Origin: a bacterium ADurb.Bin157
GTDB taxonomy: Bacteria > Muiribacteriota > Ozemobacteria > Ozemobacterales > Ozemobacteraceae
Assembly: GCA_002070375.1 (NCBI GenBank)
Contig: MWDD01000007.1
Span: forward strand, 12,985 to 76,984
Direction of reading: 5' to 3'
DNA length: 64,000 nucleotides
The notes beneath the pieces are model-generated. The model did not search any database and was not told the origin of the DNA. It saw only the letters and a program-made list of their open reading frames with translations. Numbering within the stretch: the stretch's first letter is position 1; the number at the start of each line of letters is the position of its first letter. Positions 22,143-44,107 of the stretch are shown here, one piece after another. The translations under genes were made by a program, and so were the position numbers.

Positions 22143-22227
22143 GCCGGAATGGCGGAATTGGCAGACGCACGGGACTCAAAATCCCGCGCCCCTTAAAGGC
22201 GTGTCGGTTCGACCCCGACTTCCGGCA
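22143..22227 (+). tRNA. tRNA-Leu (anticodon CAA), type II with long variable arm
   Basis: The acceptor GCCGGAA pairs with TTCCGGC plus discriminator A. The anticodon stem-loop is CGGGA-CUCAAAA-UCCCG and the T-arm is GTCGG-TTCGACC-CCGAC. CCA is not encoded. Confidence 0.9.
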
Positions 22228-22230
22228 CCG

Positions 22231-39527: not shown

Positions 39528-42389
39528 ATGCCTAAGAATACCGACTCTAATGTTCATAAAGAGATTGAAGATTTAGTTACGGATTTACGTTCTACTCTTG
39601 TTACAAAGCGACTTAAAGCAGTTAAAGAATTAGGAAAACTTAAAACCGACTTGGCGGTTGAGCCGTTGGTTTATACATTGAACGATCGTTCAAAAGAGGT
39701 TCGGTGTGCGGCTGTTGAGGCCATTGGTTTAATAAACCCCGCCAATTTGGCAGATTTAATTGTTTATTTAGCCAAAGATAAATCTGCCGATGTTCGTTTG
39801 CGGGTGGCTCACGCTTTAGGTTCAAATACAACAGATTTGTCGGTTGATACTCTGATGATTTTGGTCAGAGATCAAAAAGACGAAGTTGCTAATATGGCTG
39901 CAAAAAGCTTGTCAAAGAACCCGACAGGCAGCTTGGCTTTATTGATAAGGCTTTTTGCCGATAATTCTTGGAAGTTGCGTTCAAGGGCTGCTGCCGCTGT
40001 TACGAGAATGGGCAAAGTCGCTACAGAAGCTTTGAAAGTTGCACTTGAAGACAGCGATTCAAATATTCGTTTTTGGGCGATAACCTGCCTGGGTCATCTT
40101 CGTGACAGATCTAACAGCAAGCTTTTGGTAACAGGATTAAACGATAAAGACCCCGGAGTAAGAATAGCTGCTCTCAGGGCTTTACGAGAACTTGGCGACC
40201 CAAATATCGCATCTATGTTGTTTGAAGCTCTTTCTCAACCGTCAGATCGCGTCAGAGACCTTGTTTATGAGATTTTAAAAGATTTTGGCACACATTCGAT
40301 CCCCTATTTAATGGATTCGCTGTCTAATGAGTTTTGGATGGGGCGTTCGTTAGCGGCCCAAGCCTTAACCGACATGGGTGCTGATGCGGTTGCCCCTTTA
40401 GTAAGCGCCTTAGAAAGCCAAGACAAAGAAAGACGATATTGGGCAATAAAAATACTCGGAAAAATGCGGGAAAAAACGGCTTATGCCGCGATAAAAAAGT
40501 TTCTCAGCGACCCTGACCCCGAAATAAGAATGGCGGCCCTCGAATCTATGGGCTATTATCTTGATACCGAGTCTATACCAAACCTTATAGAGCGGTTTAT
40601 GGACCCCGCTTGGGTTGTTAGAAAGCACGCGGCAAGGGCTGTTACCGCATTTGCTCATAAGGCGGTTCCGTTTTTGATAAAGTCGCTCAAATCAGAAGAA
40701 GAAGATGTCAGATATTGGGCTTTGCGTTCTCTTGGGGATCTTAAGCCAATAGGAATTTTTCCGGTATTGGTTAAGCTTTTTACAGACCGTTCATGGACAA
40801 TAAGAAAAACTACTTCTGATGTTTTATCTGAATACGGGGAAGACGCTTTGATGGAGTTAACGGCTTTGGCGGCAGATTCAATTGAGTCGGAAACCAAATA
40901 TTGGGTTTTGCGTTCACTCGGAAAAATTAAATCAAAGATATCTTTGCCGTTGCTGTTCAGGGCACTTGACGATGAATCAGAATCTATTATGGATGCTGCT
41001 CAGAAAGCTTTGTCAAATTATGGTGAAGAAATAATAGACGATCTGTTTGCTTTGTTTAAAAGTGAAAAACGCAGATTATTAGAGAGTGTGTGCAATACTT
41101 TTCAGCGTATGGACGCAAAGATCGTTGTTCCGAAGTTGTGCCGTAATCTCGGAAAATTTGATGAGCAAATAAGCTATTGGATACGCAGAACTCTTTGCGG
41201 GTTTAAAAAAGACTCGCGCGAAGAGATTTTAAAGCTATTGCAAAGCAAATCTGAAGAAATTAGGCGCCAGGCTGTTATATGCTTAGGACAATTTGGCTTT
41301 GAAGAAGACGCTAAACACGTTTTGCCTTTGTTAAAAGATGAATCATGGCCGACGAGAATCGCGGCAGCAGAGGCTTTGGGTGAATTGGGCGACCCCATTT
41401 CTGTTTCCCATTTAACAGAATCATTAGAAGACGAAGACGAAGATTTGGCCATGGCTTCCATGATTTCGCTTGGTAAAATAGGCGATGAACGGGCTGTTCC
41501 CGGTCTTATATCAACTCTTCACCACGAATCTTGGGCATTAAAGTTTCAGGCAATCAGAATATTAGGTGAAATGCGAGTAAACAGGGCCTTTATAGATCTT
41601 TTAAGATTACTGGACGAAGACACATTAGATCTTAAAACCCATATTATAGGAGCTTTATCGCGTATTTCTCACGCAAAATGCTATGATGAATTAAAGAAAA
41701 GGTTTGAAAAAGAGAAAGATTCAGAAGTCAAAATGGCTTACATTGAAGCTTTTGCAGAAATCGGAAACAAAGACATTCTTTCTTTGATTGTTAAACTGGC
41801 GAGAGAAGGCAACGAAAACCGCGAAGAGCGGCGCGCAGCAATTAGAGCATTAGGTAAAATGCACGCTATTGAAGGAAAAAATGTTTTGTTGGCGGCCTTG
41901 CGCGAAAAAGACGCGGTAATAAACAGAGAGGCGCTTTCTGCGTTAGAGCTTATTCTTGATCGCGACGAGTTTAACAGAACAGAAAAAGCGATTACTGAGG
42001 CAAGAAAAAAGCAAGAGGCTTTTACTGTGGCGTTTAATACGGGAATGAGCAATATGCGCACAAACAATTACACAGAAGCGGAAAAGCATTTAAAAGAGGC
42101 TGTTAAAATTAATCCTAGAGCGTCTTATGTGTATTCGGCTCTGGGAAATCTTTATTACAAAACAGGACGCTTGATAGATTCGACAAAAGCTTATGTTATG
42201 GCAACCGGCTTATCCCCGCAAGATGTGACTTTGAAATTGAATCTGGGAATGGTGTATTATCGAAGAAGAGCTTATAAAGAAGCTGTCGGCATGTTTGAGT
42301 CTGTTTTGTCGGTAGCAGGGCCGAAGTCGCAGCAGGGCGATTATTCTGCAAAAATGATAAATAAAATCAAAAGTGAAATTAAAAAATAA
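39528..42389 (+). CDS. giant HEAT-repeat (PBS-lyase HEAT-like) protein with C-terminal TPR repeats
   Basis: 953 aa. It has about 20 iterations of the pattern ...VR..A..ALG..GD..A...L...L.D....VR. The final ~120 aa are TPR-like (YTEAEKHLKEAVKINP...). Confidence 0.85.
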   Translation: MPKNTDSNVHKEIEDLVTDLRSTLVTKRLKAVKELGKLKTDLAVEPLVYTLNDRSKEVRCAAVEAIGLINPANLADLIVYLAKDKSADVRLRVAHALGSNTTDLSVDTLMILVRDQKDEVANMAAKSLSKNPTGSLALLIRLFADNSWKLRSRAAAAVTRMGKVATEALKVALEDSDSNIRFWAITCLGHLRDRSNSKLLVTGLNDKDPGVRIAALRALRELGDPNIASMLFEALSQPSDRVRDLVYEILKDFGTHSIPYLMDSLSNEFWMGRSLAAQALTDMGADAVAPLVSALESQDKERRYWAIKILGKMREKTAYAAIKKFLSDPDPEIRMAALESMGYYLDTESIPNLIERFMDPAWVVRKHAARAVTAFAHKAVPFLIKSLKSEEEDVRYWALRSLGDLKPIGIFPVLVKLFTDRSWTIRKTTSDVLSEYGEDALMELTALAADSIESETKYWVLRSLGKIKSKISLPLLFRALDDESESIMDAAQKALSNYGEEIIDDLFALFKSEKRRLLESVCNTFQRMDAKIVVPKLCRNLGKFDEQISYWIRRTLCGFKKDSREEILKLLQSKSEEIRRQAVICLGQFGFEEDAKHVLPLLKDESWPTRIAAAEALGELGDPISVSHLTESLEDEDEDLAMASMISLGKIGDERAVPGLISTLHHESWALKFQAIRILGEMRVNRAFIDLLRLLDEDTLDLKTHIIGALSRISHAKCYDELKKRFEKEKDSEVKMAYIEAFAEIGNKDILSLIVKLAREGNENREERRAAIRALGKMHAIEGKNVLLAALREKDAVINREALSALELILDRDEFNRTEKAITEARKKQEAFTVAFNTGMSNMRTNNYTEAEKHLKEAVKINPRASYVYSALGNLYYKTGRLIDSTKAYVMATGLSPQDVTLKLNLGMVYYRRRAYKEAVGMFESVLSVAGPKSQQGDYSAKMINKIKSEIKK

Positions 42390-42406
42390 AATAATTTTAA
42401 AATAGC

Positions 42407-42436
42407 TTGACTTTTTAAATGCTATTGTGATAGGAT
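42407..42436 (+). promoter_or_regulatory. sigma70-like extended -10 promoter driving the large noncoding locus
   Basis: TTGACT (42407-42412), an 18-nt spacer, then TGaTAGGAT (-10 at 42431-42436). The architecture matches the tRNA-Leu promoter in this window (TTGAAT-18-TGgTATAAT). Confidence 0.5.
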
Positions 42437-42442
42437 GAATCT

Positions 42443-43543
42443 GTTAAGCGAGATCATTGAAAATTAAATCGACAGCCAAAAGTGTCTACTTCTGAACTCA
42501 GGTAGAAACCGGACGGTTATCCAAAGATGAGTGGTGTTACCCGGTGACGGGCAAACAACTCTGAGGAGAAAAAAATAATCCAGGGTAGCGCGGGATCGAA
42601 GAAGAAGTGACAACCAAGGCACAAATTCCATAGGGGGAGGCTCTCCGAGTAATCGGAAACGCCAACTTTTGTAGCAGTAAGACTCTAAGAGGGTAGAAAC
42701 CCTGAAAGAGGAAGTGCGTAAGCACAGGGCGACAGAAGCCTGATACCCCAAAGGACAGAAGGTCAAGAGAGTTATGTTTCGTTTTTGAAGGAGTGAAATC
42801 TGACAAAATACGATCTGCTCTGCACCATGGGATAAAAGCTCCATGGCTGGCCAAATCTCAAAACGGGAACCGGCTGCTTGCAGCGAGGGGCTTGGGTAAG
42901 TTATAGTCGCAACAGATGTAAGTCTGGCGGTTGAGCGGAGGGATCCGCAAATGAGTCCAAGAAGAAATCCGTATAGAGATGGTAACAGCGAAGAAGCAAG
43001 GCAATCAGAAACGATTCGCCGATCATTGCAGTGTTAAACTCTGAAGACCCTGACCCCGCGAGTGCTTGCAGGATGGAATAAGCCTGCGAATCATCTGGGA
43101 TGTAAGTTCTGCTGAAAGGTTGAGAAAACCTATGAGCGGAGTGCGACAGGGCCGGAATCCTGTTTGTCGCAGCCCTTTGATTATAGCGCTGAAGGGGAAA
43201 AAACCTAGAGAGGCGTTGGTGTATCGCAACCAATGAAGATGTGTGAAAGAGCCTTGAAGTCGAACATAAGTTTGAAAGAGGACAGAAAAACTTGATTAAC
43301 CTCAGTTCGGTGATTGTATGAGGGCCTTAAGGACGACGAACGTTTAAAGGCTTTACGTAACCAAATGCGCGTAATAGTGCAATCATGTTAAAACTCTATG
43401 AAAAGTGTAACGACAAGAAGGTGTAGGCGATACCGGTGACGGTATTGACGAACCGCATATCGAAAGTCTCTGAGAAGGCACGTCGATTTCAATGAAACCT
43501 AGCTTAATAAAAAGACCTCTGAGTAATCAGGGGTCTTTTTTTT
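42443..43543 (+). ncRNA. candidate large (~1.1 kb) structured noncoding RNA, family unrecognised
   Basis: No plus-strand ORF of 60 aa or more across 1.3 kb, and the minus-strand ORFs are overlapping and non-protein-like. It is bounded by a promoter and a strong terminator. Hand-counted lines give about 50-55% GC against about 37% for a flanking coding line. At least six internal GNRA-capped hairpins lie on the plus strand (coordinates in findings). A possible 5'/3' closing helix pairs 42466-42473 with 43482-43489. Confidence 0.6.
43514..43543 (+). terminator. intrinsic terminator ending the noncoding locus
   Basis: gacctctga-GTAA-tcaggggtc (9 bp including one G-U, GNRA loop) followed by T8. 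Confidence 0.85.
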
Positions 43544-43726
43544 GCTAAATTTTTGTACATTGCTGCTCAATTTTTAGCAAATACAATTTTTTTGCATTGC
43601 GATGATTGTGGTGAAACCCTCTTTATTTCGGGTTTTCGTGAAATTTTTAAAGTTGGCACAAAAAATGCTTTGACTTAGACATCCGATATGTCGATAAGAT
43701 TATAAGTTTTATTAGGAGTAATTAAA

Positions 43727-44107
43727 ATGCGTAAAGTAATTCTTGTTTCTGCCCTTTCTCTTGTTTTGAGCGCTGCCCCTTTGTTTGCCGGTCCTTCTAA
43801 CAGCCAATCTTCACAGACTTCACAGCAGTCTTCTCAATGTTCACAGCAATCTGGTAATTGTTGCCAAAAACCCGGAGCTTTCTCTAAAATAAAAGATTCT
43901 TTCAAAAAGGGTTTTCAGGCAGGCAAAAAAGTTGGAACAAAAGCTCATGACAGCATTCAGAACAAAGTTATGGACGGCGGAGTTTGTGTAAAAGAAAAAC
44001 TTACCGGGAATAAAGACAAAACTTTTGTTAAAGGTTACTATACAAAAGATGGTAAGCATGTAAAAGGCCATTGGAGAAACTTAGAAACCAAAAAAGGCAA
44101 AAGATAA
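43727..44107 (+). CDS. small secreted basic protein
   Basis: Signal peptide MRKVILVSALSLVLSAAPLFAG, a Q/S-rich segment with a Cys cluster (QCSQQSGNCCQKPG), and a basic C-terminus GYYTKDGKHVKGHWRN. Confidence 0.6.
   Translation: MRKVILVSALSLVLSAAPLFAGPSNSQSSQTSQQSSQCSQQSGNCCQKPGAFSKIKDSFKKGFQAGKKVGTKAHDSIQNKVMDGGVCVKEKLTGNKDKTFVKGYYTKDGKHVKGHWRNLETKKGKR

Follow-up and report, generated by a model that had tools for sequence, protein, structure and literature searches.

We examined the interval between a gene for a HEAT-repeat and TPR protein and a gene for a small secreted protein in a 64,000-nucleotide stretch of DNA (the window) from bacterium ADurb.Bin157 (GenBank assembly GCA_002070375.1, contig MWDD01000007.1, positions 12,985 to 76,984), which is identical to a contig of the metagenome-assembled genome (MAG) GCA_022704895.1. 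Between the HEAT stop codon at 42389 and the start of the next coding sequence at 43727, the longest open reading frame (ORF) on the plus strand has 56 aa, and the GC content of the locus is 46.1% as compared with 39.0% across the 64-kb window. A first-pass annotation, made from the sequence alone, had described the locus as GC-enriched, devoid of plus-strand ORFs of 60 aa or more and crossed by four overlapping minus-strand ORFs, and had proposed that it encodes an independently transcribed, highly structured RNA of a new class. The composition and the absence of long plus-strand ORFs were confirmed, all four minus-strand ORFs were found as listed, and every hairpin, repeat, promoter and terminator string that had been quoted is present at its coordinates; the proposal itself is supported by homologs, covariation, promoter and terminator. 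We conclude that the locus is very probably a stand-alone gene whose product is a non-coding RNA of an undescribed class, very large (about 1.05-1.10 kb) and highly structured. The RNA is found in a single subclade of Candidatus Riflebacteria, among Ozemobacteraceae-like MAGs of anaerobic digesters.

Homologs were sought through orthologs of the HEAT-repeat protein, and all the relatives recovered are Candidatus Riflebacteria / Ozemobacteraceae MAGs. Full-length homologs of the RNA were identified by nhmmer in three further species (L018, L021 and L023; E-values of 5e-168 to 3e-196), in each of which the RNA lies directly 3' of the HEAT gene, whose product shares 71-72% identity with that of the window. 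Nine more contigs from the window's own species differ from it at 0-9 bases, and the RNA is present as a single copy within the window. The RNA of the window is 72-77% identical to those of the other three species (73.5-77.5% in the comparison with coding DNA), while the adjacent coding DNA is 67% identical; among L018, L021 and L023 the corresponding values are 84-93% and 72-80%. The most conserved stretch, at 43346-43422 in domain 5 of the fold described below, includes an invariant 31-mer, and invariant blocks of 23-31 nt occur mostly in the helices that close domain 3 and in domain 5. The first-pass annotation had made its reading depend on homologs with base changes that preserve its helices; such homologs exist at full length, with compensatory changes that are numerous both in the listed helices and in ~40 others.

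A consensus fold was computed with RNAalifold from a sequence-only MAFFT alignment (alignment A3) of six sequences, equivalent to four effective species. It comprises 310 base pairs in 52 helices and pairs 620 of the 1101 nt (56%). Compensatory double changes are seen at 67 of the 310 pairs, and 99.1% of the alignment cells form standard pairs; when the 3' partners were slid by 1-3 columns, only 3-10 compensatory pairs and 37-42% pairing were left. The consensus energy is -334 kcal/mol as against -178 +/- 9 kcal/mol in 40 column shuffles that keep the conservation pattern (z = -17.9), and these shuffles yield 18 +/- 5 compensatory pairs (maximum 33) against 75 for the RNA alignment. When the same procedure was applied to the more divergent HEAT coding alignment in four 1.1-kb blocks, energies of -103 to -134 kcal/mol and 22-31 compensatory pairs resulted, and the reverse complement of the RNA reached -248 kcal/mol. 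For the window sequence alone, the minimum free energy is -349.6 kcal/mol as compared with -300.8 +/- 7.1 kcal/mol in 40 dinucleotide shuffles (z = -6.9), with a z of -3.1 for the minus strand. Within species, all four of the single-nucleotide polymorphisms that fall inside helices preserve pairing by interchanging A-U and G.U. Covariation and energy both favour the plus strand, which is the orientation that the first-pass annotation had read from the hairpin loops. Covariation support here denotes counts of compensatory pairs set against slid, shuffled, coding and opposite-strand controls, and not formal significance statistics of the R-scape type.

The fold has five large domains and three small hairpins within paired ends, and its parts are listed in Table 1. 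The pairing of the two ends, suggested earlier from the window alone, is borne out, as P1 is kept in all sequences and the outer terminal helix covaries. Domain 2 contains the 42644-42657 hairpin, whose stem stays paired through G-C to A-U changes, a second hairpin of sequence GGGU-AGAA-ACCC, and an internal loop (AAG/GAA) bordered by a CUCU/AGAG helix. The short motifs that had been noted as repeated are indeed present; the ACUCU motifs among them are mostly the 3' strands of AGAG/CUCU helices. Helices 18, 19 and 21, which close domain 3, show either no change or a change on one side only. Helix 38 of domain 4 shows three consecutive compensatory pairs, and helix 50 of domain 5 shows six. Hairpins proposed earlier at 42873-42884 (CUUG loop), 43142-43171 and 43214-43235 all recur in the consensus fold. 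The proposed CCATGG/CCATGG hairpin does not, and its first arm pairs instead with 43023-43034 in an invariant long-range helix. Two palindromes, the 8-nt UUACGUAA at 43353-43360 and CCAUGG at 42825-42830, are invariant in all four species; they may pair intermolecularly, and both lie in non-varying intramolecular helices of the consensus fold. A search for quaternary kissing loops of the kind seen in OLE and GOLLD, in the form of covarying palindromes, found just one varying palindrome (CCGG/CUAG, 42870-42873), which sits in a stem region and is partly accounted for by intramolecular pairing, and this candidate was set aside.

Table 1. Position, strand and character of the RNA gene, its predicted structural parts and its flanking genes (window coordinates)
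Feature	Position	Strand	Remarks
Predicted transcript	42443..43543	+	~1101 nt from predicted start to end of U tract; body between terminal stems ~1.05 kb
Promoter, sigma-70-type with extended -10	42407..42436	+	TTGACT-18-TG-a-TAGGAT; from promoter scan
Outer terminal helix, UUAAG/CUUAA	42444..42448 / 43503..43507	+	5 bp in all species; 2 compensatory changes (UGAAC/GUUCA elsewhere)
Closing helix P1, AAUCGAC/GUCGAUU	42467..42473 / 43482..43488	+	Helix 1, 7 bp; encloses all domains; invariant, no covariation
Domain 1	42475..42620	+	Helices 2-9; 12 compensatory pairs in helices 3, 5, 6, 8
Domain 1 GNRA hairpin	42540-42551	+	Loop GUGA/GCGA/GUAA/GUGA across species
Domain 2	42627..42755	+	Helices 10-17; helices 10, 12, 14, 16 covary
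Domain 3 (largest)	42761..43049	+	Helices 18-30; 20 compensatory pairs in helices 22-30
Domain 3 closing helices	42768-42773/43037-43042; 42817-42830/43023-43034	+	Invariant, long-range
Domain 3 hairpins	42873-42884; 42913-42926	+	CUUG loop (invariant); GUAA loop
Domain 4	43054..43197	+	Helices 31-38, including bulged hairpin 43142-43171; helices 31-34, 36, 38 covary
Two junction hairpins, CCU-NNNN-AGG and CGUUGGU/ACCAAUG	43204..43235	+	Helices 39-40; nearly invariant, one one-sided change
Domain 5	43238..43461	+	Helices 41-50, including GNRA hairpin 43427-43449; helices 41, 43, 44, 46-48 covary
Small hairpin adjoining P1, GUCU-loop-AGGC	43466..43479	+	Helix 51; invariant stem
Intrinsic terminator	43510..43543	+	Helix 52, 13-bp hairpin with GNRA loop (GUAA/GCAA) and U tract; 3 compensatory pairs, 100% paired
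HEAT+TPR protein gene	39528-42389		953 aa; immediately 5' of the RNA locus
Small secreted protein gene	43727-44107	+	126 aa, Ser/Gln-rich; first coding sequence 3' of the RNA locus

Six strict GNRA hairpins (at least 4 Watson-Crick pairs) are present on the plus strand of the locus, the sixth being the terminator, and none on the minus strand; CAGAT-GTAA-GTCTG, which is closed by a U.G pair, falls outside the strict count. In 2000 dinucleotide shuffles the count was 0.24 +/- 0.49 with a maximum of 3, and other 1.1-kb windows in the 64 kb have at most one such hairpin each, so that shuffled sequences, the control that the first-pass annotation had named, do not reproduce the number. The loop is kept as GNRA in four of the four species at 42540-42551 and 43430-43445, in three of the four at 42913-42926, and in the terminator. 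The stems at 42644-57 and 42935-48 show compensatory changes, their loops being non-GNRA in the other species, and the GUG/CAC stem at 42714-25 is invariant, without covariation, and likewise has a non-GNRA loop elsewhere. The homologs have two strict GNRA hairpins each. The earlier description of the locus as packed with GNRA hairpins stands in so far as the count exceeds that of shuffles, but the abundance is partly specific to the window's species, with three of the listed loops conserved as GNRA.

The promoter of the predicted transcription unit starts 18 nt after the HEAT stop codon, with 17 nt between the stop codon and the -35 box. The TTGAC, TG and TAnGAT elements are invariant and conserved in spacing in the four species, while the spacer and flanks vary; the promoter, proposed in the first-pass annotation, was also returned by our scan. 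The -10 box predicts a start at ~42443, a single base upstream of the terminal helix that covaries. At the other end, the terminator hairpin that had been proposed covaries and its U tract is kept in all species. A terminator scan gave no return at the locus, although hairpin and U tract are plain in the sequence, probably because too few free T remain for the rule of the scan where the stem runs on into the A/U tracts. Four short public contigs (L057-L060, 1052-1315 nt, together within window positions 42366-43680), found via the 126-aa minus-strand ORF discussed below, hold essentially only the RNA locus. L059 spans 42452-43514 and L060 spans 42452-43503, so that both begin 9 nt downstream of the predicted start and stop at the foot of the terminator. 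Judged by these ends, the two look like an assembled transcript, or else may reflect assembly-graph boundaries, and as they come from sister samples we count them as no more than a lead. Independent Logan assemblies were also seen to break repeatedly at the same positions inside the RNA (322 nt after the HEAT stop in L050-L052 and L054, 82 nt in L020 and L022, and 91 nt in L003), and these same-position breaks include two different RNA-bearing species from one sample.

Searches with cmscan using all 4227 families of Rfam 15 at gathering thresholds found no match at the RNA locus, and at E <= 10 the locus and two homologs gave weak terminator-like matches only. The covariance models of GOLLD (RF01998), ROOL (RF03087) and OLE (RF01071) did not match at either the gathering threshold or E <= 10. 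No match was obtained with the Rfam models of RNase P RNA, tmRNA, SRP RNA, 6S RNA, HEARO and raiA, tmRNA was absent by ARAGORN, and no similarity to the small-subunit (SSU) or large-subunit (LSU) rRNA models was seen. The first-pass annotation, which had recognized no hallmark of a known RNA, is upheld by these searches over 4227 families and three species. CsrB/RsmZ-type sponge RNAs carry many GGA motifs exposed in hairpin loops; a CsrA sponge of this type was considered and rejected, as 11 GGA motifs are conserved in all four species and only two of them lie wholly in hairpin loops. A phage, plasmid or viral origin was rejected on the absence of matches in viral, phage and plasmid collections. 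A defence-system context was likewise dismissed, the matches being generic HEAT and cyclase ones that are not common to both lineages. In the literature, we found no paper that ties Riflebacteria to non-coding RNA, no title or abstract on large or ornate bacterial RNAs that describes such an RNA, and, in two preprints from 2026 on the discovery of non-coding elements, no relevant match for Riflebacteria, HEAT or giant/ornate RNA. As the RNA fails all the covariance-model and context tests that were run, and no mention of it was met in the literature searched, we regard it as a new class.

The genomic setting differs between lineages on one side of the RNA only. In the window's lineage, the RNA is followed by the small secreted protein gene and then by a polysaccharide deacetylase gene, while in the other lineage it is followed by genes for a dCache adenylate/guanylate cyclase, a DUF2971 protein and a radical SAM protein; the RNA is therefore linked only to the HEAT gene. 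Synteny pursued via the downstream adenylate/guanylate cyclase led to no further RNA, the closest further ortholog (72% identity) having an ABC ATPase upstream. Eleven Riflebacteria loci, whose HEAT orthologs share 53-96% identity with the protein, all lack the RNA. At eight of them a conserved gene for a 270-320-aa secreted protein directly follows the HEAT gene, L012 has a minus-strand ORF in the slot, and the contigs of L005 and L009 end at or within the HEAT gene. The RNA occupies the slot of the secreted protein gene. The slot protein, seen in the RNA-negative loci L004, L006-L008, L010, L011, L013, L014 and L024, bears a CxxC...CPKC motif and is matched by neither Pfam nor NCBIfam. The P0002/P0003 lineage (L015-L017), which is closest to the window by HEAT sequence, has in the slot a gene for a 164-aa membrane protein on the minus strand. 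A diverged RNA was looked for there and rejected in favour of this real-looking gene, at 29% GC, which indicates loss or replacement of the RNA in that lineage. In L015-L017 the membrane-protein gene is followed by flgM and flgN; together with weak matches between the TPR part of the HEAT protein and TPR proteins of pili and flagella, this hints at a motility-related neighbourhood. A scan of metagenome contigs with an invariant 18-mer returned 18 loci, of which 17 are chance matches and one belongs to the same species; the collection scanned evidently lacks the JGI sample that holds three of the homologs, and absence elsewhere is not shown by it.

Other features of the window are as follows. 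Genes in the neighbourhood encode BipA, LOG, a PilT-like ATPase and a cNMP-binding protein, besides the HEAT/TPR protein. The product of 43727-44107, which is specific to the window's lineage and matches no family, is a secreted protein of 126-130 aa; its N-terminal part is Ser/Gln-rich and contains Cys, and its C-terminal part is rich in Lys. A tRNA-Leu(CAA) with a long variable arm at 22143-22229 (+), 20 kb from the RNA, is the sole Rfam/ARAGORN match in the 64-kb window.

The database record implies a different reading of the locus. A minus-strand ATG ORF of 126 aa at 42464-42844 is annotated as hypothetical protein BWY02_00671 in GenBank, in the single MAG record of bacterium ADurb.Bin157, and is also called on the four short public contigs; the annotation implies a protein-coding gene or its decayed remnant. 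We find this reading hardly tenable. The ORF shows no conservation, as in L018 no stretch at that place runs beyond 77-87 codons without a stop, and its product found neither a relative in a set of 5.8 billion proteins nor a match in Pfam. Coding in any frame, including a small ORF, was rejected on the lack of codon periodicity, of an ORF common to all four species and of a protein match: variable alignment sites fall at 120/119/116 by position modulo 3 in the RNA as against 355/171/802 in the adjacent gene, and 8-29 stop codons occur in every frame of every species. The ancestral slot gene did not leave a pseudogene either, as eight orthologs of the ~300-aa secreted protein gave no tblastn match to the locus, and the structural covariation favours the strand opposite to the annotated ORF. 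The possibility of a decayed gene, which the first-pass annotation had itself raised, thus finds no protein or pseudogene signal by tblastn, periodicity, Pfam or comparison with 5.8 billion proteins. BWY02_00671, being an orphan that overlaps a structured RNA, is almost certainly a mis-annotation on the opposite strand. An odd record of a related kind is seen at L044:6010-6859 (-), where the JGI gene table has an 850-nt feature with a '19-residue product' opposite the RNA. The locus could also be the remnant or ORF-less form of a mobile self-splicing RNA or retroelement RNA, such as a group II intron-like or other element-associated RNA, inserted after the HEAT gene. With its many domains set about a central junction, the RNA is loosely reminiscent of the wheel of a group II intron; in an ancestor, the locus took the place of another gene, and its presence among close lineages is patchy. 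Nevertheless, we deem such an origin very unlikely, since neither group I nor group II intron models match the locus or two homologs even at E <= 10, no reverse transcriptase, transposase or nuclease gene lies nearby, and no defence context is common to both lineages. Moreover, the single copy in the window has its own promoter and terminator, and its evolution looks vertical, with divergence that tracks that of the host gene.

A more serious alternative, improbable as we judge it, is that the RNA is a structured 3' untranslated region (UTR) of the HEAT/TPR operon, made by read-through, which acts in cis on the stability or regulation of the mRNA or is released as a 3'-UTR-derived RNA. The short distance between the HEAT stop and the -35 box contains no terminator, the first one met beyond the HEAT gene is that of the RNA, and the RNA adjoins the 3' end of this gene in every case while the downstream genes differ. 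However, amid a variable spacer the four species share invariant -35, TG and -10 elements, and the 5' end predicted from the promoter takes part in a covarying terminal helix. The 52 helices over 1.1 kb far exceed the needs of any known cis-acting 3' UTR element, most Riflebacteria HEAT orthologs are without the RNA, and L059 and L060 begin 63 nt after the HEAT stop. The independent transcription claimed in the first-pass annotation is in keeping with the conserved promoter and terminator, but read-through from the HEAT gene is possible as well. As no terminator intervenes between the HEAT gene and the RNA, read-through transcripts processed at the terminal stem may occur alongside those from the RNA's own promoter.

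Several points weigh against a stand-alone RNA gene of a new class. The species-level sequences number four and belong to two lineages, which leaves few independent compensatory events, and the long-range helices P1, 19 and 21, of which 19 and 21 help close domain 3, are invariant and so offer no covariation test. Transcription is predicted from promoter and terminator, L059 and L060 come from sister samples, and the missing terminator upstream of the promoter means that part or all of the RNA is possibly made as a 3' UTR. No specific function is indicated, the palindromes, the CsrA pattern and the defence, retroelement and phage contexts all being negative. Finally, the distribution of the RNA appears narrow, and the searchable collections are incomplete.

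Based on these observations, we propose the following for the stand-alone RNA gene. The sigma-70-type promoter 3' of the HEAT/TPR gene would drive a transcript that has no conserved ORF and whose 5' and 3' ends are clamped by the terminal stem and P1. In the computed fold, five large domains and three small hairpins radiate from a central junction, with compaction perhaps achieved through the conserved GNRA loops and A-rich junctions, and the conserved intrinsic terminator ends the transcript. The RNA would accumulate as a discrete, stable molecule, and it may also be cut from HEAT-operon read-through transcripts at the terminal stem. Those bacterial RNAs of comparable size and complexity whose roles are known act as ribozymes or as cores of ribonucleoproteins (RNPs), namely rRNA, RNase P, introns and tmRNA. 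The size of the RNA, its covarying helices, clamped ends, GNRA loops and invariant blocks, and the absence of a link to downstream genes lead us to infer a structural or catalytic role in trans, in which the RNA would act as the core of an RNP or of an RNA-only machine, as scaffold or ribozyme, and not as a cis regulator.

At ~1.1 kb, non-coding and with predicted independent transcription, the Riflebacteria RNA falls among the large ornate non-coding RNAs (>500 nt), a descriptive category that does not imply homology, and it shares with them a covariation-backed structure with invariant blocks (52 helices and 67-75 compensatory pairs). OLE is found in Bacillota, where the partner genes oapA, oapB and oapC are usually adjacent. 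The Pfam domains in the genes that flank the Riflebacteria RNA are only cNMP-binding, HEAT/TPR, polysaccharide deacetylase and WecG, no search having been aimed at Oap proteins. Like OLE, the RNA is a large conserved structured RNA of anaerobes with long invariant stretches, and the OLE RNP is the functional model that we favour; it differs in lacking a match to the OLE model and in its occurrence in Riflebacteria rather than Bacillota. OLE is ~600 nt long and works as an RNP (PMC9723947, PMC12054373). GOLLD is the largest of three ornate classes studied, with many members of >800 nt, and a 659-nt example of ROOL has been described; GOLLD and ROOL occur in phage or prophage contexts, often near tRNA islands, and OLE, GOLLD and ROOL form homo-oligomers, which are RNA-only nanocages in GOLLD and ROOL and a dimer in OLE (PMC12286853). 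Against these reported lengths (~600 nt, the 659-nt example and >800 nt for many members), the first-pass statement that the RNA is longer than OLE, ROOL and GOLLD holds. It resembles GOLLD as a very large ornate orphan RNA of bacteria with many helices and multi-stem junctions. Unlike GOLLD, it is longer (~1.05-1.10 kb) and chromosomal, lies beside a housekeeping-looking HEAT/TPR gene and not in a phage or prophage, and has no match to the model or in viral or phage collections; the sole tRNA of the window is 20 kb off, and there is no evidence of quaternary kissing loops. With ROOL it shares the character of a large, complex, stand-alone RNA without a known protein partner or function, but ROOL is ~600 nt long and associated with phages and prophages, whereas the domains of the Riflebacteria RNA are arranged differently, within a terminal stem that closes them, and the ROOL model does not match it.

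Likenesses to better known RNAs are also seen. As in group II introns and RNase P RNA, independently folding domains surround a central junction, GNRA loops likely serve tertiary docking and the GC content is above that of the genome, but here there is no model match, no domain V-like element, no intron-encoded protein and no flanking exons, and the RNA runs from its own promoter to its own terminator. The pairing of the ends in a long terminal stem that encloses the body recalls rRNA precursors, as does the breaking of metagenome assemblies inside the locus, which is also seen at rRNA genes; unlike rRNA, it has no SSU or LSU similarity and is a single small locus of restricted taxonomic range.

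Large, intricately folded RNAs are rare in bacteria. It is possible, though we put it forward only tentatively, that the present one is the largest non-ribosomal structured RNA class yet in bacteria, either a new ribozyme or the core of a new particle (RNP or RNA-only), which arose specifically in Riflebacteria by replacement of a protein gene at the 3' end of the HEAT/TPR operon. A new class of ~1.1 kb and 52 helices from a phylum without a cultured model would give RNA structural biology a new subject, and the length and conservation of the RNA make it a direct target for cryo-electron microscopy. It also shows that major RNAs are still hidden in the gene-free, GC-enriched gaps of MAGs, where current annotation mislabels them, in this case by calling a hypothetical protein on the other strand. 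The narrow distribution limits the analysis but also offers an opening: since lineages with the RNA have sisters that lack it (the P0002/P0003 lineage and Rifleibacterium), the partners of the RNA could come to light through comparative genomics.

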